A DNA stretch of 38,485 nt from a phage, in the NCBI GenBank assembly GCA_016969615.1, contig GCA_016969615.1_4548.1. One strand, written 5' to 3'. The notes below the pieces were generated by a model, which saw only the letters and a list, made by a program, of their open reading frames with translations, had not been told where the DNA came from and ran no database searches. The position numbers and the translations under genes were made by a program. Below, one piece after another: positions 1-38,485 of the stretch. The number at the start of each line of letters is the position of its first letter. Positions within the stretch are counted from its first letter, which is position 1.

Positions 1-648
1 GCTTCGCAAGGCCGCATCACCGACACTAACCCACGCTCCTAGCCCAATGCCACCAGACGTTTCAGGAGTGGAACCAGCAGGAACGTTCTTTGGAAGCGTA
101 CCATCCCAGCGGTAATAATCACCATCCTCTTCCCATAGCAGGGCCTCGTTCCATGTTGTAACGTTGAAGCCTTTCTCGAAGGAGCGACGGGTAATATAGC
201 CAACTAGACCAGCTGCCTTGATTCTCTCAGCGATTCGTCGTGCTTCGTCCTCGCTATCCTTAGCGTTGCCAGCAGAGCTACCAGCAGCATCGGCATATTC
301 CTTCGCTAAGTCAACAGTTTGGTCTCGACCTTCTTCTGCAATATGGATAGCCTGAAGCTCTGCATTGGTCAGGTCACTAGCTGTCAACACTGAGCCATTC
401 CTGAAGTCTACCACTAAGTCAGTTCCAGTCTGACGGTGAATACGAACGATGTCGAAACCTGATTGGTCAACCAACATCTCAATCATCGTTGGATTAAGGA
501 ATCGGTAATCTCGACCAACTTCCAGTACACGGTTCAGGGTGGGGTTAGAGCTATTCACCAGCGTAACAACAACAAACGTTCTGGCTAGGTATTCGAACTC
601 AATCCTGTACTGAGTGTTTCCTGAAGGGAATTGTGTAATCGTGGACAT
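1..648 (-). CDS. gp17: Tail fibre/tailspike protein, N-terminal adaptor domain (5' part only; ORF runs off the window start)
   Basis: ATG at 648..646 after AAAGGAGG; 216 codons open to position 1; translation [32 protein letters not shown]...[12 protein letters not shown]...[10 protein letters not shown] matches the conserved T7-family gp17 N-terminal domain. Confidence 0.85.
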
Positions 649-698
649 TATGCCTCCTTTGTGATTTAAATGGAGACCTATGGTAGCGCCTCCAGTTT

Positions 699-716
699 CC
701 TATAGTGATAGTTTAG
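699..716 (-). promoter_or_regulatory. Phage RNA polymerase promoter core upstream of gene 17
   Basis: plus-strand cctatagtgatagtttag = minus CTAAACTATCACTATAGG; 11 copies of this core in the window; overlaps gp16 stop. Confidence 0.8.
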
Positions 717-3700
717 TCCTTGATGTGGATACCTTGCTCCTCAAACGTTCCAAGCAACAGCTTCTGGGTAATTGGGTCGTTCGGAACCAGTTCACGGAAC
801 GTATTATACATCCCGGTCATGTAGTCACGCTCGTTGACACGAGTATCGGCCTTGAGGTAGCCAGCCAAGTTGTAAGCCGAAGCGCCAACGTTAGCAGCAT
901 ATCCGAAAGCTGGAACCTGCTCCAAGAAGTTACCAACAATATTCATCACAGGGTCACTTGTAGCTGCACCATACGCGATGGCACGTTCAGTCTTCTCTGT
1001 AGACGAACGAGGTAGGATAGACGAACGGAGCATCTTAGTGTCCTCGTACCCAGCGATACCACCAAGAATGTTAGCTACCCCAAGTGGTCCACCGAGATGT
1101 GAACTACGGGACAGAGCCGCATAACCAATCATCGTCGGGTCCAGAGCTTGCTTGAGGTAGTCACGGTCACGACCATCCTGCATAGCGTAAGCCTTGATGT
1201 GTGCCTGAGCCATGTAGTAGATACCAGCAAGACCCATAGACATCACAGTGGACAGTGCAGCGTCAATCGCTCTGTTGTTCTTCGTGGCGTTATAGAAGGT
1301 TCGCATGGTTCTCCCATTGATGGACTTGATGACGAAGTTCTTAAACTGAAGGACAGTCTTAGCCAGAGGGCCATAAGCCTTGGCGTCCATGTTACTCAGC
1401 TTGTGTGGACGAAGCAATGTCTCGTCAGCGATGGTGTCGCCCATACGCCACAGGTCCATAGCCCTTGGGTCCTGACTAAACGCCTTCTTATCCTTGATCG
1501 TGTACTTCCCGTCTGGACCACGCGTCACTGACTCACGGATGAGGGACTTAATGCCCTTCCACTGCTCGTCAGAGATACCAGCGGTCTTCAGCCATCGGTC
1601 ATCGAACTTACGCTTACTACCAGTCAGGCTATGCTCCACGATGTCAGATAGGAAGCCTTGACGTCCAGCATCTAACAGGTAGTTGGTCGTACCGTTTAGG
1701 ACTTTAGTGAACGGAGAGCGTACGGCAAGTTCACCAGTGTAATACTTGGCAGTCCCCAGAGCTGTAGCTGCACCACGACCGAGGTCACTGTAAGACCGCA
1801 GACGGTCGATGACATCCTGTTTAGACGGACGGATTGAGTCATCCAATTCTTTACCGAAGAGAACACTATGCAGGTCCTTAATCTCTGAGGCCCCTACCTT
1901 CTTGTTACGGAAGGCTAGGTCACGGAACATCGGGACTCCATGCAGCAGCGCACGAACGTTGCCACGAGCCAGCATGCCTCCAATCTCCGTTAAGTTCTGA
2001 ACACCCATGTAGGCATTCTTAGCGAAGAACGATAGGTCTGTCATTGTGCGCATCACGGTAGCGAAGGCTGCATCATCAGCACCATCACGTCGAGCACGAC
2101 CAGTTAGAATCTTCAAGGTGTCACGTAAGGTAGATACCTCACCTTTCAATTTACCGTCATCCCCAGCCTTGTTCATCATGGTCTCAACCAAGTCCTTCAT
2201 GTCCTTCGTGGTTTTGCCTGTACCAGCCATGATAGCAATATCGCCATTAACTCGACGGTTGTAGGCCGGGACAATCTTGTCCATGTCCCACTCACGCAGG
2301 TTGTTGACACTGAAGGTCTGACCGTTAGGAAGGACGATTGACATATCGCTATCGAACAGGTTACGAGCCTCAAGGAAGCTGTTGTTCTCCAGACCAACCA
2401 GACCGTTGATGTTCTCTTCCATTACGGATGAACGTTCGAACTGCTCGGTGTGAGAGATACCGTAAGCCTTATCGTTGGCGTACTTATCGACCGCAGCAGA
2501 AAGTCCCTCTGGAGTCAACGTAGGGTCAGCCTCTAAGAGTGCCTCGTCCACGCGTTTCTTGACTTCAGGTCGAGACGCATAGCTGGTCAACCATGACTTC
2601 TTGATGGCCTCCTGCAACGCCTCTGGACTCCCAAGCTCCTTGATGTACAGCTCCTTCATCTGTTTGCTATACACATGAGGGACGTAGGTCCCCTTGAATC
2701 GGCTACCCGGAAAGATAGACTGAGCGTCTGGACGACCAAACATAGCTGGGTTCTCCATCATCTCACGCTTGGCGTCAAACTGGTTCTTCAGTAGGTCATA
2801 GACTTTCAGCTCTCCCGGAGTCAGTTCAGCCTTCAGGTTCCCACTACCATCTTCGATAGCCATGGACACACGCTGGTAGATGTCCTGACGGAATGCACCA
2901 GAGTCTCGCCAGAATGCTGTCTGGAAGTACGGGTCCTTTAGTGCCTCAGTAACCGCATCGTCGATGTCGTTGTAGAACCGATGGTCCACAGCACGAAGTC
3001 TCTCGAACACGTCTGACGCAGTTGTCCCGATTTTACCTGAGGCCCCAGACTGCATACCAGTTGGTGAACGCACTAAGTCAGCAGCTACTCCACGAATCTC
3101 AGGGTTCTCAGACCGAAGCAGCTTCAGACCAATCTCGGTAAGTCCGCCAAGGTTCACGCCAGCAGCTGCACGTTCCGGCTCAATCACTTCGTCAAAGACT
3201 TGACGTGTCTTAGGGTTCAGAGGGTTCTCACCAATCAGGATTGAACCATCTTCCAGTCGTACACTACCCGGCTCGTTCGGAACGTCAGCGAACTTAACAC
3301 CTTGATGACTAAAGGTCTGCTCACCTTCCTGAATAGGTAGACGAGACAGGTCCTGACCGTCAACATTACGTGCAGTCTCACGGGCTTCCAGACGTGTGGC
3401 TGGACCAGCAAACTCATTAGTGTTGCGGCCCAAGGCTCTTCCTAGTCCATCAGCGATAGCAGTCATACCACCACCGAATAGAGCGCCACCAAGGATAGCT
3501 TCAGCCACATGAGCATCACCACCAGCCACTGAGGTACGGGCCATCTCAGACACACCAGCCAGTGCTCCGGATTGAGCCGCCACGGTGAACATCTTGTTTA
3601 CCAGTTTACCTCCTTTACCCACCTGTCCAGCAATCGGAACGTATGTCAGAGGGTCAACGCCAGCGCCAATAACACCAGCAGCCAACTGAGCACCAGTCCC

Positions 3701-4604: not shown

Positions 4605-6887
4605 TTACTCCTTACCGATTAGTACGTTTGCGATACCCTCCAATGAGACGTCATTGTACATCCCTCCGCGCTTCTCGATGTTGGACTCTCGGTCAGCTCG
4701 ACGTTTGTCACCAGCAGCTTTAGTCCCGACGATACGCGCTCGCTTGTTAGCGTCACGTTCTGCCTGAGCGTATGCGGCATCTTGTGCCTTCTGCTGTTGT
4801 TCGCGGTAGAGTTTACCTACAAGTTCTTTATCGTAGCGAATACGAATAGTCCCTGTAGCGTCTTGGAGGAAGATAGAGCCGTTCTGTTCAACAACGGACA
4901 ACTGAGAGTTCACTACCCAAGGGTTGGCCTTAATGAGCTGCTTACGAGCGGTGTCGATAATGTCTCGACCAACCTGCCACGACTCTGGGCTATCCCCGAC
5001 CATAAGCTGGTGTTTGGAAACCATGCCGATGGACTTACCGTCCGAACCTTCAGACTGGAACGTTACTGTATTCTCATTAAGCCAGCGTTGAGTCTGCTGA
5101 GTTGCGGCGTCAGCGTTACCTGTACGATAGTACCATGAGTCCCAGACCTTACGAGCACTTGAGTCCAGAGACGTTGGGAGGCGAGACAACTGGGTGTTCT
5201 TGGAGTCGTTCTTCAACTCCTGCCACGCCTTGTCTGACTCCATGCGCATCTCACGGCTTTGACTTGCAGCTTGCTTATCAGCTTCAATCATCGTCTGAGG
5301 GTCCAGACCCATCTTGTCCATCTGGTCGAACGTAGAGAACAACTGAGCTTGGTCAGGATACAGAGCAGCAAAACTTGAAGGGTCCTGAGTGTAGGCACGA
5401 CGAAGAGACTCGAAGCGTTGCATCTTGTCTGGGTCGTACTGTCCACGGATGACAGCAGCTTGCCACTCGCCAGCAGCGTCCTGAGTTAGAGTCTGGAAGG
5501 CATTACGGAACGGACCGTTGTTAGTGTCGGCTCTTAACAATGCCACCTTCTGAGCGTCTTTAGCAGCCTCAGGAATGTCCATCTGGTCAATCTGCTGTAG
5601 CTTGGCAGACGCATAGTTGTTCATGTCAGAACGCTTGAACTCGCCTGTAGCATCTGAGACCGGAAGGTCCTCATAGTTGGTGGACACGTTGTCACCAGCC
5701 AGACGTCGCTGATACACTTGGTCAATGACCAGTTGCTTGTTCTGAGTCTGGATTAACTTAGTGTTCTCCTTCGCCTGTTCAGCAGACTTACGCTTTACCG
5801 CTTCCAGTAAGCTGGCTTCGGCATTAATAAGCATCTGGCGCTGAGGCGTTAGTTCTTCACCCGGCTGAAGCAGGTTGTTCTGCTCCTTGAGTTTCTGAAT
5901 CTTGGCAAGACCGATGGTTGGGTCGTCCTGAAGAATCGCAGACTGAACGCCTAACGCTAAGTCCTCCTGATACTTAGCCACCAGCTTGTACTCAGTTCCT
6001 TGTGCCTCAACAATAGCAGCGTTGAAGACATCAGGTCCCACAATCTCCTCGACTGTAGCGTCCACACCGTTAAGGGTGATTCGCTCTCCTCGAACTTGCT
6101 GTAGGAAGTTTGAGCCGCCAGACTTCTGGATTGCGTCACGGACCGTCTGGGTGATGACCTCTCGTGCTCGCTGGTCCGAAGGGATCGCAGCAGTAGTTAG
6201 TCCATCCCGAAGGTAGGCCATGAAGGTCTTTCCAGACTCAGGCGAACGCATCAGGTCCCCATCGTTAAGGAACGAGTTCATCTCAATACGAGTGTTCAAC
6301 ATTGCTGTCTCTTCAGACTGCTTGCTGAAATACTTATTGAAAGACCCATAGATAGCGATGTTGCGGTCTGTGATGTTATCGTTGAACCCGCGCTGGAAGA
6401 ACTCGTCGGTAGGGTTAATACCCGCCTCTTCAGCATAGGACTTAGCGGCGTCCTGCAGTCGCTGGTGGCGATACTCTTCCATCTCCTGACGTGTACGGAA
6501 CTCACCGTTCTGAATCTTAACGTTAATCTCGTCATCCACCGCAAAGGCAGCGTTACGGCCCGTCTTGACTCGAAGTGCTTCCATAGCGTAAGGGTCGTCC
6601 TGATATAGCAGCGTGCCGTTCTGGATAGCCTCACGTCTTTGCTGAGGTGTCAGCTTACGGATAATCTCGTTAGACCTCTCGTCGGCACGGGTCTTCTCCT
6701 CGTCTTTGAACTGCTTGTATAATCCAGTCCCAGACTCAACGAAGTTGGTTAACGCACGAGCCAGACCGGAGTCACCAGTTGGAGCCTGAACGCTGGCTGC
6801 TTGATAGTTGACGGCGATAGTTTTACCCGGCGCTCTGCCACGACCTATAGTCCGATTAGCCAGTGCTGATTCAATATTACTAGCCAT
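4605..6887 (-). CDS. gp15: Internal virion (core) protein C
   Basis: 760 aa; motifs shared with T7 gp15 (ADERSNEIIRKLTPQQRREA, GTLLYQDDPYAMEALRVKTGRNAA); RBS AAGAGGAGG. Confidence 0.9.
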   Translation of the reverse strand: MASNIESALANRTIGRGRAPGKTIAVNYQAASVQAPTGDSGLARALTNFVESGTGLYKQFKDEEKTRADERSNEIIRKLTPQQRREAIQNGTLLYQDDPYAMEALRVKTGRNAAFAVDDEINVKIQNGEFRTRQEMEEYRHQRLQDAAKSYAEEAGINPTDEFFQRGFNDNITDRNIAIYGSFNKYFSKQSEETAMLNTRIEMNSFLNDGDLMRSPESGKTFMAYLRDGLTTAAIPSDQRAREVITQTVRDAIQKSGGSNFLQQVRGERITLNGVDATVEEIVGPDVFNAAIVEAQGTEYKLVAKYQEDLALGVQSAILQDDPTIGLAKIQKLKEQNNLLQPGEELTPQRQMLINAEASLLEAVKRKSAEQAKENTKLIQTQNKQLVIDQVYQRRLAGDNVSTNYEDLPVSDATGEFKRSDMNNYASAKLQQIDQMDIPEAAKDAQKVALLRADTNNGPFRNAFQTLTQDAAGEWQAAVIRGQYDPDKMQRFESLRRAYTQDPSSFAALYPDQAQLFSTFDQMDKMGLDPQTMIEADKQAASQSREMRMESDKAWQELKNDSKNTQLSRLPTSLDSSARKVWDSWYYRTGNADAATQQTQRWLNENTVTFQSEGSDGKSIGMVSKHQLMVGDSPESWQVGRDIIDTARKQLIKANPWVVNSQLSVVEQNGSIFLQDATGTIRIRYDKELVGKLYREQQQKAQDAAYAQAERDANKRARIVGTKAAGDKRRADRESNIEKRGGMYNDVSLEGIANVLIGKE

Positions 6888-33612: not shown

Positions 33613-33796
33613 ATGCTACATACCTCCTGTATCTATGGTCGGTGACTATCTGTATTGGAGGGATTATGATTAATATCACCCTCCTTCCATCGGTGCAAGC
33701 CTTAGGTAAGAACTCGGAGTCTGCCTCCTAAGGTCTTGCATAAAGTCTGCATATGTATATTCACTACAGTAATACTATAAGTAACCGGGGGTCTTC

Positions 33797-33814
33797 CCTA
33801 TAGTGATAGTTAAG
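33797..33814 (-). promoter_or_regulatory. Phage RNA polymerase promoter core after the terminase gene (phiOR-like)
   Basis: minus CTTAACTATCACTATAGGGAAG; reads across the genome-end junction. Confidence 0.8.
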
Positions 33815-33909
33815 TCCAAACTCCTTGTAAAACAGTAGGTTAGACTGGTAGTAACTATAGGTTACTAACTGCGTATTCACGCAGCTTTCACCTATAATTA
33901 TTCATTCAG

Positions 33910-35673
33910 CTAGTGGAACGTAACGTATGACCCTAGTCCCAGCTCGTCGTCCGTATCGTGAGTTACCCGGACCCCATTGTCCCAGAACTCAGTGTGGATG
34001 GACTCGAAGCCTTTCCGTGGGTTCTCCATCTGTTCCTCCAGCCACTCCTCAGTGACTTCACGTTCGCCCTTGTTGGCATCCTTAGCCATAGACTCAACGA
34101 AGAACTGTACACCGATAGCCAGAGCATCAAGTCGGTCATCGTGTGCCAAGGCTCCACGTTCACGAGAGATACGTGTCATCTGGTAGAAGAGAGAGTAGAT
34201 AGGGTTACGAACACCATCCTTATCAGAGGCCGACTGGTAGTCTTGGACGATAGCAGCAGCGTTAACGATAAGTCGGTGAGACCCCATGATAGGCTCCAGA
34301 ACGTCACAGATTCGGAGTTCTTTCTGCCCCTTACTCTTCACTTCAGTTACAGCAGCAGGATGGATACGACCCGCTACAGGCTTGAATAACTCAAGGTACA
34401 TACCATCACCGAAGTTACCCTCAATGACGTATTCGTTGACCTTCCACTTACGACCAATCTTAGCCAGAGCTTCCAGCGTAGAGTCTTCATAACCACCACG
34501 CATACCACCAACTTCCATAGCGAAGATGTAGCCGTTGAGCTGGTACAGTACCGCATATCCAGTTTCATCCTTACCACGACCACTAGGGTCAATGACCAGA
34601 ATCTTCTGGGTGTATGAACTGAAGGCAGAACCTACAGTCTGATACGTGTGGTATGAGTCACCCATGAGTCCAACGTTAGGAACGTCCTCACGCTTGTTCT
34701 GAGGGTTAGGCAACCATTGGTAGACCATTGGGCTGGACGATGGGTCCAAGTCAGCTACGATAAGGTCACGGAGCTTCAGAGGGTACTTCTCAGCATCACT
34801 TAGGTTCGGGTTGAGCATGAACTGTAGAGCGAAGCCAGCTTTACCGTAGGACAACTCACGTTCCTTCAGGTCAGTATCGTCAAATCGAACTTCATCGGTC
34901 GGACGCCAGTAGAAGGCCTCAGGGTCCTCTTCAAGCTCTGCCTGAAGCATAGGAGCCAGACGGTCTCCGTAAGACTGCCAGTCCTTCCTGTCGCGTGGAT
35001 AACGAGCGGGCCAGATAGTAGTGGTGTACCCACGGCCTTCCAGCTCACGATACAAGGTCATCTCGTTCTGAGGAGTACCCAGATAGATGATTGTACCTCC
35101 CGGCTTCAGGATAGCGTCGAACTCCTTCACAAGCTCTGACAGACGGTCTCGTGCGGCCTGAGTCGCTGAGTTGTTTGGAACCTCCACGTCGTCGGCAATC
35201 AGGATGTCAGCACGACTACCAGTCAACTGACCAGTGATACCAACGGACTTAACCGAAGGTGAGTGGTCTGGCTTGGCTGGTCCAACATCGAAGCTGATAA
35301 CCGCATCTCGCTGTCCCTGCTTAGGTTTGAGTTCCTGAAGCTGAGGCATGAGGTCGATGATTCGCTTGATGAAGATGGAGTTAGCATCGGCTCGTTCCTT
35401 TGAGGCCGACACAATCATGAACTTCAAGTCTGGGTTGTTCCATAGCTTCCAGACAACGAAGGCGCACGTAATGAAGGACTTCCCGATACCACGGAACGCC
35501 TGTAGGATGAAGCGCCTGTTGTCCCCAGCCGATAGTTTCTTCGCCATATCAATCTGACAGCGAGTCGGGACTGGGAGTGACAGAGCTTTCCACAGGACGA
35601 ACAGGAAGAACACGAAGTCTGACTTCATACGTGCAGTCATTAGCGCCTGACGCGCCACTAAGTCTTTACTCAA
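33910..35673 (-). CDS. gp19: Terminase large subunit (DNA maturase B)
   Basis: 587 aa (T7 gp19 586); near-continuous identity ([73 protein letters not shown]); start read as TTG at 35673, ATG alternative 33 nt downstream. Confidence 0.95.
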
Positions 35674-35684
35674 TGCTTCACCTC

Positions 35685-36476
35685 TTAAGAGTTAAAGATG
35701 CGGTCAACGCGAACAGTCAGGGAGGACAGAGTAAGGTCCTCAGACCCGGTAACTGCAATGCCAAGCGTAATGCCAGTAGTAACGAACGGGTCGTCTGTAT
35801 TAGCTATGTAGCTATGGATGGCCGCCTCACGAATGGTGAATGACTGCTGGTCATCTGTGTCCGTCACGGAAGATAGGGTAGTGTTATCTGGTCTACGAAG
35901 CTGCACTCGCCACTTATGAGCTGAGGCTGTAGGGAACTCACCAGCGAACCGAACGACGAAGTTTACACCACTGAGTCCCTCTTTAGCTGGGAACAGCATC
36001 TTTCCTTCCGAGATAGTAACGACGCCGCTATCCACTCCCTTCACTAAAGGAAGAGTCATTAGGTTAGTGAACTGTCCCGCAGCACACACTTGGGTTCCTG
36101 ACCAGCTGAAGGTATCCAGAGAATACTCAGCGTGGGATACAGGACGTGACTCCCGATAAGTATACTCTACCTTAACCAGTCCGACGCCACTGTCATTCAG
36201 CTTGGTGACTTTAAGAATCAGGAAATCGTCTTCTGTGATACCATCCACTTCCAGACGTATACTGCTTGATTGTAGAGGCCAGTCGCCACCATCGGAGAAA
36301 TTACCAGTAACAGACGTACCGTCGCTTAGTGTAATCCTTGTAGACTCGGCGTTAGCTGGGACCTTCACGTATATTGTACCAGATAACAAGTGACCGGATG
36401 CGTTCTTCAGTCCAGATGGTGTACCAGTAGCAAAATGCCAAACTACGTCAGTTTTCAAAGTAATAATATTACCCAT
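35685..36476 (-). CDS. Hypothetical 263-aa protein between the spanin genes and the terminase gene
   Basis: ATG 36476 after AAGGAG (7 nt), overlaps gp18.5 stop; Thr/Ser/Gly/Val-rich, no TM segment, no motif recognised; no gene at this position in the T7 map. Confidence 0.8.
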
Positions 36477-36921
36477 TGTCTTTCTCCTTGTCTTGTTGAA
36501 GTCTGCGAATAGTATCCTGTAGTGCTTTAATCCAAGCGTCCCCTTTCAGTCCGATGGAGATAAGACGTTTAGCATCTCGTTCGTCAAGTTCGGCGTAACC
36601 ATCAATGACGCATCGACCGTCACTTTGCGTGGTTCCACTCGTTGGTTTGACTCGGATGCGCAACCGCTTATTGTCAGACTGAAGGTCAGCAATAATCCTA
36701 TCAGTGCTACCTTCCAGCGAGGACATTTCGTCCTGAAACCGTTTGGACACTTTGTTGACTTCAGCTTGGACAGCAAGCCTTGTATCCTCCGATGCCTTAA
36801 GATTCGAGGTGTATTCTGCATTGACCTTAGCCTCCCACTTATTGTTAGCGGTGTGGTAGCCCCCAGCAAACATCACTGCTGCGAGTAACCACGGAGCCGC
36901 TCTCTTTAAAAATTCGAGCAT
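36469..36921 (-). CDS. gp18.5: i-spanin (Rz-like)
   Basis: 150 aa; N-terminal TM helix; STDRIIADLQSDNKRLRIRVK and RDAKRLI...KGDAWIKALQDTIR match T7 gp18.5. Confidence 0.85.
   Translation of the reverse strand: MLEFLKRAAPWLLAAVMFAGGYHTANNKWEAKVNAEYTSNLKASEDTRLAVQAEVNKVSKRFQDEMSSLEGSTDRIIADLQSDNKRLRIRVKPTSGTTQSDGRCVIDGYAELDERDAKRLISIGLKGDAWIKALQDTIRRLQQDKEKDNG
36546..36821 (-). CDS. gp18.7: o-spanin (Rz1-like) embedded in the gp18.5 gene in another frame
   Basis: signal peptide plus lipobox (LTISGC); RWKVALIGLLL...SGCASES...MV.PNLTNEMLNV matches T7 gp18.7; start assigned at ATG 36821. Confidence 0.7.
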   Translation of the reverse strand: MQNTPRILRHRRIQGLLSKLKSTKCPNGFRTKCPRWKVALIGLLLTFSLTISGCASESNQRVEPRKVTVDASLMVTPNLTNEMLNVLSPSD

Positions 36922-36980
36922 AGGTGTACTCCCGGTTTATCAGATTTCACGTAGAGTCTCCTCCACTAGTTAGTGTTAAC

Positions 36981-37020
36981 CATAAAGGCCACTACATACA
37001 GTAATGACCTTGAGTCTAAC
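36981..37020 (-). promoter_or_regulatory. Conserved leader element (R18.5-like RNase III hairpin candidate) between genes 18 and 18.5
   Basis: minus TAGACTCAAGGTCATT-loop-AGTGGCCTTTA; same stem as 20299..20335 with a different loop. Confidence 0.5.
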
Positions 37021-37031
37021 ACTTAAGAGAT

Positions 37032-37295
37032 TTACTGCACTCCATATCCAGTGTCATTATCTTCCGTAGCGGAGAGCACCTTATCGTACTCTGCGTTCAG
37101 GGCCTCCATATCAGCGAGCGTCTTCTCGTCAACAGACACCTTGCTTAGCACGAAGTTGTGACGAGCCAGTAGCTTCTCAATGGCGTTGTAAAGCTGAGGT
37201 GAACGCTTAGAGTCATCCCGCAGGTCTTGCAGCATGAGTCGAGCACGTTCAGTATCTAGCATTAAGAGGAACTTCTCTAAGTCCATCTGCGTCAT
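37032..37295 (-). CDS. gp18: Terminase small subunit (DNA maturase A)
   Basis: 87 aa; L.MLDT..A..ML.DL.D...RSPQLYNAI.KLL.RH.F matches T7 gp18; ATGA overlap with holin stop. Confidence 0.85.
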   Translation of the reverse strand: MTQMDLEKFLLMLDTERARLMLQDLRDDSKRSPQLYNAIEKLLARHNFVLSKVSVDEKTLADMEALNAEYDKVLSATEDNDTGYGVQ

Positions 37296-37486
37296 GTTTT
37301 ACCACCTCCTTTAATCGTTTTGTAGACTAGCACACCAATCTGGACAACGGTGTACGCGATAGCTGCAACGTAGAACCATTCGTTCAATGTAAGTCCGAAG
37401 AAGAACCGACTGGCACCATCAGCCGCAGCGGTCCCGACGATAGGAGAGGCTTTAAGGACCTCATTCTTGAAGTCTAACTCAATCAT
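37292..37486 (-). CDS. gp17.5: Holin (class II)
   Basis: 64 aa; LDF.NE..KA.PIVGT..AD.SAR.FFGL.LNEWFYVAAIAYTVVQIG matches T7 gp17.5. Confidence 0.9.
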   Translation of the reverse strand: MIELDFKNEVLKASPIVGTAAADGASRFFFGLTLNEWFYVAAIAYTVVQIGVLVYKTIKGGGKT

Positions 37487-37556
37487 AAAACCTCCAGTTT
37501 AAAGCGGGTCGTCCGTGACCCAAAGTTGTTACCATACGTTGGTCAGCGTGTAGTTA

Positions 37557-38485
37557 TCACTCAAACCAAGTTGATATTTTGTAAGTGATTGAACCGCGAA
37601 TGGTTGCTGATGATGTAAGATCTTCATTTGTCAATGGCGAGGTTGATGATCCATCTACTAGCTTGTAAAAATCTAATGTTGTTGAATTTCTTTCCATAGA
37701 TATACAAATCTGACCAACACCAGAGCTAACCCCACTTACCCTTGATATGGTCCCAGATGCCACATCGGACGATGCGTAAGGTAGATTTCTAAACCGTAAC
37801 TGTCCGGTTTGACCTCCCGCACCATTGAATGAAATATCAAATTCAAGGGTAATTAAACCACCTTCTTTTCTCAGTTTTACGTCTTTTGTGGCGCCACCTA
37901 TGTCAGATGTAATATCCCCGAAAGTTATCACCACAGAAGAGTCAAGAACCGAACTAAGGGAGAAGGGTTCAAACACGACAAGGTTAGTACTGCCTCCTTT
38001 GTAGATATAACTATTGGTAGGTGTGTTGTACCGCACTGTGTTACCCTCGCCACTACAAGCAACACGTGGGATTGTATTGCCGCCGAATGAGCCACCATTG
38101 AACACAATGTTATTCCCAGTACTATGTATCCAGAGGTCACGACTATATGAAGTGTCTTGACCGAACACTAAGAAATTATTGAAGGTGAGGTTGTTATCAC
38201 TATGCACAGATAACAGGTTACCTGTACCACCTGCCGGTAAGATATAAAAGTCTGTAAGTGTCATGTCATTACCTTGCTGAAAATGACCCAGGACTCCAAG
38301 GGCAGCATCCTGTGTAGTGGGTAACTCAGCACCACATCCTGTAAGATTAAAGCCGTTGTTATTATCAAACCAGTACGCGCCATACACTGTACCATCAGAC
38401 GCACAGCTTCTCATATTACCATACTGCTGGTTGCTAATTCTAAATGCACCAGGCGTTACTGTAGGGTCTGTAACCTTAGCAAATA
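37557..38485 (-). CDS. gp17: Tail fibre/tailspike C-terminal receptor-binding region (3' part only; ORF enters from beyond the window end)
   Basis: open frame from the window edge to TGA at 37557 (308 codons), then holin as in T7; visibly AT-richer than the rest (about 35-40% GC in sampled lines); no similarity to T7 gp17 C-terminus recognised. Confidence 0.7.
   Translation of the reverse strand, partial: FAKVTDPTVTPGAFRISNQQYGNMRSCASDGTVYGAYWFDNNNGFNLTGCGAELPTTQDAALGVLGHFQQGNDMTLTDFYILPAGGTGNLLSVHSDNNLTFNNFLVFGQDTSYSRDLWIHSTGNNIVFNGGSFGGNTIPRVACSGEGNTVRYNTPTNSYIYKGGSTNLVVFEPFSLSSVLDSSVVITFGDITSDIGGATKDVKLRKEGGLITLEFDISFNGAGGQTGQLRFRNLPYASSDVASGTISRVSGVSSGVGQICISMERNSTTLDFYKLVDGSSTSPLTNEDLTSSATIRGSITYKISTWFE

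Follow-up and report, generated by a model that had tools for sequence, protein, structure and literature searches.

The question addressed here was what is encoded by an additional gene that lies between the spanin genes and the large terminase gene of a T7-like phage (NCBI GenBank assembly GCA_016969615.1, contig GCA_016969615.1_4548.1; the whole stretch of 38,485 nucleotides (nt) is referred to as the window). The gene, termed gene 18.8, encodes a 263-residue product (gp18.8), and the local gene order is 17.5, 18, 18.5/18.7, 18.8 and 19. The original prediction, made from the sequence alone, had described a well-formed gene at this place in a T7-type order, which was borne out, and had proposed either a virion-associated host-range factor or an anti-defence function. 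In the reading favoured here, to which a probability of about 0.5 is given, gp18.8 is a trimeric, virion-borne accessory adhesin.

The structure of gp18.8 was predicted as a monomer with AlphaFold2, using an alignment of 59 sequences; this run replaced a single-sequence run that was unusable (predicted local distance difference test score, pLDDT, of 40). The model had a mean pLDDT of 93.6 and a predicted template-modelling score (pTM) of 0.62, the latter being consistent with two domains of uncertain mutual orientation. The N-terminal domain was predicted as an eight-stranded beta-sandwich (strands E3-14 to E100-112, within residues 1-112; block pLDDT 75-96) and the C-terminal domain as a jelly roll (residues 118-261; pLDDT 95-98 over residues 121-260). 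An internal duplication was rejected, as hhalign showed no relationship between the two domains (probability 0.15%).

On the predicted model, the C-terminal domain has the jelly-roll fold of tumour necrosis factor (TNF) and C1q. The best solved matches found with Foldseek were the Sf6 and HS1 tail-needle knobs (E 1e-6; template-modelling score, TM, 0.65, normalised to target length). Next came two TNF-like lectins (BC2L-C-Nt and PLTL), a tail-fibre chain of cyanophage A4 and, from A-1(L), the domain by which the short tail fibre binds cells; the central spike knob of phi812, the C1q-like exosporium protein ExsF/BxpB and TNF-family ligands were also matched. The Foldseek probability was 1.00 for 3rwn, 4k6b, 6tid, 9ib7, 8ke9, 9k09 and the TNF ligands (TM 0.5-0.68, also normalised to target length). 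Matches in BFVD included one under the InterPro name 'Sf6-type phage tail needle knob domain', along with C1q-domain and collagen-repeat viral proteins. At the sequence level, HMMER profiles from two alignments gave no link to a solved structure among all PDB sequences (best E 0.48-1.3, to unrelated proteins).

The Sf6/HS1 knob, of a P22-type gp26-like needle (PDB 3rwn, 4k6b), resembles the one predicted for gp18.8 in being a C-terminal TNF-like jelly roll of some 150 residues, but the two share 14% identity in the structural alignment; no sequence relationship of gp18.8 to the Sf6 gp9/HS1 family was detected and the likeness is one of fold only. Moreover, in Sf6 the knob forms the tip of a long coiled-coil needle inserted into the tail; gp18.8 has no coiled coil but a globular beta-sandwich, and T7-like tails have no needle. 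The same fold, in a C-terminal and distal position, is found in the cell-binding domains of A4 gp24 and A-1(L) gp33 and in the ECOD 10.3.1 modules of Klebsiella phage receptor-binding proteins. In A4 the TNF-like domain was described as the cell-binding tip of the fibre (PMC12002296), and in the Klebsiella phage proteins TNF-like modules recur as exchangeable C-terminal carbohydrate-binding units (bioRxiv 10.64898/2026.05.12.724579). The structural matches to the N-terminal domain of Burkholderia BC2L-C and to Photorhabdus PLTL (E ~1e-4, TM 0.6-0.68, normalised to target length) are to bacterial, not viral, proteins with 7-10% identity to gp18.8 and no sequence similarity. Both are trimeric TNF-like jelly rolls that bind sugars at the protomer interfaces, and could serve as a model for how the gp18.8 knob binds glycans.

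Sequence homologues of the knob were found in many other phages. Residues 117-262 of gp18.8 matched phrog_17779 (E 9.7e-23, profile positions 56-206 of 208), and relatives from N4-like, epsilon15-like and Aeromonas phages matched the same family, PHROG 17779, at E 1e-55 to 1e-98. A HMMER profile search retrieved 186 relatives, including collagen-like and fibre-repeat proteins (E down to 1e-40), which are thus true sequence homologues of the knob besides having the same fold. The domain was at or near the C-terminus in almost all of the 150 relatives listed of the 186, in proteins of about 170-900 residues. When 70 relatives were scanned, the recognisable N-terminal partners were collagen triple-helix repeats (6 of the 70), phage tail repeats, phage fibre repeats, a phage tail tip domain, DUF2793, Mtd_N and an SGNH esterase; PHROG 'tail fiber' families were also among the partners. 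The fibre proteins of A4, A-1(L) and the Klebsiella phages and the collagen-like fibre proteins have a tail-attachment domain and a shaft, whereas gp18.8 is short, stands alone and is encoded about 1 kb downstream of gene 17. In other short stand-alone knob proteins the N-terminus has about 35 residues (epsilon15-like phages) or about 65 (N4-like phages), or consists of a collagen stretch (Aeromonas Chaseviridae) or a small repeated domain (45-kb Klebsiella phages). A common knob joined to a lineage-specific N-terminal part is an architecture that fits receptor-binding proteins, as judged from these sequences. Because collagen Gly-X-Y repeats, to which some of the sequence homologues are fused, always form trimers, the gp18.8 knob would be expected to form a homotrimer. 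A structural assignment, as a TNF-like knob, is offered for the unnamed PHROG 17779, which was found in at least six phage lineages.

The small N-terminal domain of the Klebsiella phage knob proteins (P0005, P0007) has about 80 residues and the motif LSGKxxG...D.W; in P0136 it is present three times in tandem, with no knob. It matches phrog_2725, a family implausibly labelled 'acetyl-CoA acetyltransferase'.

Gene 18.8 was confirmed as a real gene, far beyond a chance open reading frame (ORF), because the ratio of nonsynonymous to synonymous divergence (dN/dS) from the allele of phage P762 is 0.10 over the 263 codons, diverged phages have homologues at this locus, and AlphaFold2 predicts the structure with confidence. 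The reading frame is uninterrupted from an ATG (36476..36474, minus strand) to a TAA (35687..35685). As had been read from the sequence, the start is preceded by a strong ribosome-binding site (AAGGAG, with a spacer of 7 nt, AAAGACA) and overlaps the stop of the i-spanin gene 18.5; the overlap of 8 nt includes the gene 18.5/Rz TAA (36471..36469) and suggests translational coupling of gene 18.8 to gene 18.5. The gene does end just before the terminase gene, but the gap to the TTG start of the latter is 11 nt rather than the 12 nt given originally, and an identical 11-nt gap is annotated in Escherichia phage CLB_P1. The terminase TTG is preceded by GAGGTG, gene 19 of CLB_P1 is annotated at the same length, and the first in-frame ATG is codon 12. 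The 28-kDa product has the Thr/Ser/Gly/Val-rich composition that had been noted (T 11.4%, S 10.6%, V 9.5%, G 8.7%), and no membrane helix (maximum Kyte-Doolittle mean over 19 residues, 1.06) or signal peptide was detected in it.

Expression was considered from the distribution of promoter cores. A scan of the window for TCACTATAGGR gave 11 matches (1.1 expected); none lay between phi17, upstream of gene 17, and phiOR (33796-33806, downstream of gene 19), and no terminator-like site was found in the stretch from the spanin genes through gene 18.8 to the terminase gene. Since no promoter and no terminator-like site intervenes, gene 18.8 is most likely transcribed together with genes 17-19 as a late class III gene, in agreement with the late-operon expression originally proposed.

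The divergence of gene 18.8 sets it apart from its neighbours. The late genes of the window, from 6.5 to 19, are 93.6-100% identical to those of Providencia phage EPr2, except for the tail fibre beyond residue 216, which has no match, and gene 18.8 (47.7%). Relative to P762, the synonymous divergence (dS) is 0.84 in gene 18.8 and 0.02-0.26 in the genes around it (holin, gene 18, spanin and terminase). Divergence thus follows the host while the structural neighbours are conserved, both in the comparison with EPr2 and in dS relative to the flanks. Because dS is far above that of the flanks while dN/dS stays low, the data indicate that an older allele was probably brought in by recombination, as a replacement, and not that positive selection was fast; diversifying selection as the main cause was rejected (overall dN/dS ~0.1, with raised synonymous divergence). 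The most variable stretch, residues 41-100, lies within the N-terminal domain; it is 26% identical to EPr2 (72% for residues 1-40), holds 6 of the 12 differences from CLB_P1 and has a local dN/dS of 0.22-0.66. The alleles of the three E. coli phages (the window, CLB_P1 and P762) are 87-95% identical despite unrelated tailspikes, and the allele seems to follow the host genus rather than the O-serotype.

A patchy distribution, cassette exchange and host-linked divergence are typical of anti-defence genes too, and would also be shown by an intracellular host-takeover or anti-defence protein whose variability came from an arms race with host immunity. Such a role is improbable for gp18.8. The gene is most likely expressed with the late class III and not with the early genes, the predicted extracellular-type fold is that of adhesins and lectins, homologous domains are found at the ends of fibre proteins, and no match was obtained in PADLOC (at E up to 1, two distant orthologues included), Pfam or NCBIfam. 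The anti-defence half of the original prediction is therefore disfavoured by the binding fold and by these searches. Its other half, a virion-associated host-range factor, receives indirect support from the TNF-like knob fold, the fibre-type C-terminal homology and the divergence from EPr2 together with the distal tail fibre.

The presence of gene 18.8 at the slot between genes 18.5 and 19 was surveyed in other phages. Among 50,697 phage records, full-length genes were found only in CLB_P1 (two records; gp18.8, AGD81082, 95% identity), P762 (87%), EPr2 (48%, where the annotated start is too far downstream) and Yersinia phage Rambo, a Teseptimavirus (~20-25%). Word-indexed searches returned close relatives only, and the wider family was revealed by an exhaustive HMMER search, in which further full-length relatives of 23-27% identity were all located between a spanin gene and a T7-type terminase gene. 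The metagenomic carriers were a 38.9-kb T7-like genome (L009) and three short contigs (L011-L013), with terminases 62-74% identical to that of the window. In L011, two tandem and strongly diverged copies of the family (251..1066 and 1086..1907) lie between the spanin and terminase genes; the N-terminus of its terminase is 71% identical to that of the window and almost the same as that of T7 gp19. No match was obtained in IMG/VR with the window protein, two relatives (P0052, P0084) or one family alignment.

Most Kayfunaviruses lack gene 18.8 and have a 53-residue ORF in its place, and the description of an accessory gene in a canonical late order holds in that most relatives are without it. EcoDS1 is one with such a 53-residue ORF, and its homology to the window stops precisely at the edges of gene 18.8. 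Decayed copies are present in two lineages. Bas105 has an in-frame remnant (residues 1-41 joined to about residues 164-263) and an extra 56-residue ORF. The EcoDS1 and Bas105 ORFs (L015 1971..2132; L003 1437..1607) both end in KEVKH, encoded over the junction with the gene 19 ribosome-binding site. This 21-nt junction, GAGGTGAAGCATTGAGTAAAG, is present twice in Bas105, flanking its small ORF, which suggests that recombination took place at the 21-nt repeat. In a metagenomic Kayfunavirus (L021, a 39.8-kb contig; 4895..4935), a one-base deletion in gene 18.8 turns codon 11 into a TAG stop; from an internal GTG the gene caller then predicts a 227-residue protein, which is also called on a short contig of a second run. 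The tailspike of this phage has an SGNH esterase. Gene 18.8 is thus an optional late gene that a minority of T7-like phages carry in a fixed position between spanin and terminase genes, and that is horizontally exchanged as a cassette.

The position of knob genes in other phages varies: they follow tail-fibre genes, lie in head modules or stand beside lysis genes. The head-module sites bear on whether gp18.8 decorates the capsid surface. In Salmonella phage PAT1 and in E. coli E2348/69, where the carrier is an epsilon15/BPP-1-like prophage, the knob gene is flanked by the portal/Bbp19 gene and the peptidase/major capsid genes; in an E217-like Aeromonas myophage it lies between the MuF and scaffold/cement/capsid genes. 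As a sub-case of virion association, gp18.8 might be a decoration protein or head fibre that sits as a trimer on the T7-type lattice and adds stability, acts as a low-affinity adhesin, or both. In line with this, a knob gene of a 45-kb Klebsiella phage follows the gene of an Ig-like protein, the cement protein of cyanopodophage A4 bears a carbohydrate-binding module (PMC12002296), and one fusion partner of the knob matches a PHROG labelled 'head decoration'. That label is putative, however, and the same region is an SGNH esterase in Pfam; Foldseek gave no similarity to known decoration folds, and no T7-like capsid is known to carry decoration proteins. Placement on the head is accordingly considered quite unlikely.

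Other knob genes are neighbours of lysis genes. In a P2-like prophage (GCA_016771835.1; L017 8001..9863), the gene for a 620-residue fusion of an SGNH/GDSL esterase and a knob has the lysis cassette on one side and the tail-completion genes R and S on the other; the annotations of its N-terminal part conflict (PHROG 'head decoration', Pfam GDSL lipase). In the 45-kb Klebsiella phage (L020 7001..7717) the knob gene lies between the Ig-like protein gene and an M15 endolysin gene, in Aeromonas Chaseviridae between tail fibres and endolysins, and in N4-like phages near the lysin. This repeated proximity to lysis genes, together with the apparent translational link of gene 18.8 to the spanin gene and the failure of Pfam to recognise an attachment module in gp18.8, would suit a soluble, lectin-like factor outside the virion. 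Such a factor would build up late and be set free at lysis; it could coat receptors on debris or neighbouring cells, so that fewer progeny are lost or competitors are blocked, or could otherwise assist the end of the lysis programme. On the other hand, gp18.8 has no signal peptide or membrane segment, those knob homologues whose partners can be identified are fibre-type or structural proteins, and no precedent was found in the literature searched. The boundaries of the late operon are, in addition, generic insertion sites for accessory genes, so that proximity to lysis genes may mean nothing. A free lectin is thus possible but unlikely.

For the favoured reading, an accessory adhesin on the virion, the following sequence of events is proposed. 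gp18.8 would be made late, alongside the structural proteins, and its knob would trimerise; the N-terminal domain, specific to the T7 lineage, would mount the protein on a conserved virion component, at the tail or the capsid surface. There it would act as an auxiliary lectin-like adhesin whose ligand may be an envelope structure typical of the host species or genus and not of a particular O-serotype. Adsorption would be aided on some hosts or in some environments, and the protein would be dispensable on others.

Several observations weigh against this proposal. No recognised tail-attachment module was found in gp18.8: no Pfam family matched at E up to 1, PF03906 (Phage_T7_tail) included, so that neither this anchor nor another known one of the gp17 type is present, and there is no fibre shaft. 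The N-terminal domain, the candidate anchor, has diverged as far as the knob (about 25% identity for each), and anchor domains are usually the more conserved part. The presence of gene 18.8 does not correlate with the type of gp17 N-terminus, and that of the window is closest to those of phages without gene 18.8. In several other phages the knob genes are located in lysis or head modules and not with tail genes. Gene 18.8 is also dispensable and repeatedly lost, because it carries an in-frame deletion in Bas105 and a 5' frameshift in L021 and is absent from most Kayfunaviruses. Finally, no virion proteomics for CLB_P1, P762, EPr2 or Rambo, and no proteomic or binding data on gp18.8 proteins, were found in the literature searched.

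Docking of gp18.8 on a particular type of gp17 was rejected, as there was no correlation with the gp17 N-terminus or with the tailspike type. All homologues found of the N-terminal half belong to genes that occupy the 18.5/19 slot in T7-like phages, and this domain gave no match in Pfam or PHROG; a weak profile match to YeCBM32 (E 0.48) was not significant.

T7-like phage host range is normally attributed to gp17 alone. If gp18.8 is a second, exchangeable surface-binding protein, it would provide a new handle to engineer or predict host range in therapeutic Kayfunaviruses and would explain the slot as a recombination hot spot; CLB_P1 has reportedly been used in mouse-gut work against O104:H4 E. 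coli. A stand-alone two-domain knob protein at a fixed spanin/terminase slot of T7-like phages was not described in the literature searched, although the knob itself is of a known structural kind. More broadly, and as a tentative idea with the odds against it, the short stand-alone PHROG 17779 knobs may form a widespread and previously unrecognised class of plug-in adhesins of podophages and some myophages, encoded outside the canonical tail-fibre genes. They would dock on the capsid or neck through a lineage-specific adaptor, or be released at lysis as free lectins, and would target envelope structures at the species level and not the O-antigen or capsule. T7-like phages would in that case gain a second determinant of adsorption and host range, genetically separable from gp17.

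The gene had been called unassigned, but the orthologue of CLB_P1 had already been deposited as a 'putative protease', with reference to similarity to a 'predicted protease' of E. coli E2348/69. That gp18.8 is a protease is very improbable. The GenBank label, shared by a few relatives, is all that speaks for it; no peptidase family of Pfam, NCBIfam or PHROGs was matched, the predicted fold is a beta-sandwich with a TNF-like knob, and no protease was among the structural matches. The knob relative in E2348/69 lies immediately upstream of a real peptidase gene and is now a 'hypothetical protein' in RefSeq. Because of this adjacency, the old label is suggested to have come from the neighbourhood of the peptidase gene; it is regarded as an annotation artefact, and the propagated annotation is corrected here. 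The copies in P762, EPr2 and Rambo, which share gene and locus with CLB_P1 and the window, are labelled hypothetical. Homologues at the locus exist in few T7-like phages, and none of them has a function backed by experiment. Publications on CLB_P1, Bas105, Rambo, FBKp16 and ZPAH14 do not mention gene 18.8.

Table 1. Features of the gene 18.8 locus and of related parts of the window (positions are those of the window).
Feature	Position	Strand	Basis or remark
Gene 18.8 coding sequence (263 residues and TAA stop), accessory cassette	35685..36476	minus	ORF list and sequence
Shine-Dalgarno sequence AAGGAG of gene 18.8	36484..36489	minus	Read from sequence
Overlap of gene 18.8 start and gene 18.5 (i-spanin) stop, ATGGGTAA	36469..36476	minus	Sequence and ORF coordinates
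N-terminal domain, residues 1-117, predicted eight-stranded beta-sandwich	36126..36476	minus	AlphaFold2, homologue range
Most variable stretch, residues 41-100, in N-terminal domain	36177..36356	minus	Identity and local dN/dS
C-terminal domain, residues 118-263, predicted TNF/C1q-like jelly-roll knob, PHROG 17779	35688..36125	minus	Profile match, Foldseek, HMMER
Gene 18.5 (Rz-type i-spanin), left flank	36469..36921	minus	ORF; 96-98% identity to annotated spanins of CLB_P1, P762 and EPr2
Gene 18.7 (o-spanin), embedded in gene 18.5	~36546..36821	minus	ORF
Conserved downstream junction GAGGTGAAGCATTGAGTAAAG: gene 19 ribosome-binding site and TTG start, right cassette boundary	35664..35684	minus	EcoDS1 homology resumes exactly here
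Gene 19 (large terminase, TTG start), right flank	33910..35673	minus	ORF; annotated terminases are 98.6-99.3% identical
Phage RNA-polymerase promoter core upstream of gene 17 (phi17)	698..708	minus	Nearest promoter upstream of gene 18.8 in the permuted map
gp17 N-terminus	1..647	minus	216 residues, 95-97% identical to K1F-type phages
Tailspike C-terminal part, other end of window	37557..38485	minus	308 residues

The window is a T7-like genome, circularly permuted and slightly incomplete, and every gene is on the minus strand. The 3.6 kb around gene 18.8 (33900..37500) are 97.3% identical to CLB_P1, a Kayfunavirus of the K1F group; the window is about 1.7 kb shorter than CLB_P1, and its ends fall within the tail-fibre/tailspike region. 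The C-terminal part of the spike does not resemble that of CLB_P1, P762 or EPr2. It shares just 49% identity with a tail protein of two 72-kb coliphages, vB_Eco_F22 and E20, and this implies a putative receptor specificity absent from the sequenced Kayfunaviruses. After gp17 and gp18.8, the greatest differences between EPr2 and the window are in early or middle genes, namely the DNA ligase (70% identity), EPr2_0025 (64%) and ocr (87%, over a partial alignment). Four EPr2 genes for HNH endonucleases, and the small ORFs EPr2_0017, _0034 and _0036, have no match in the window.

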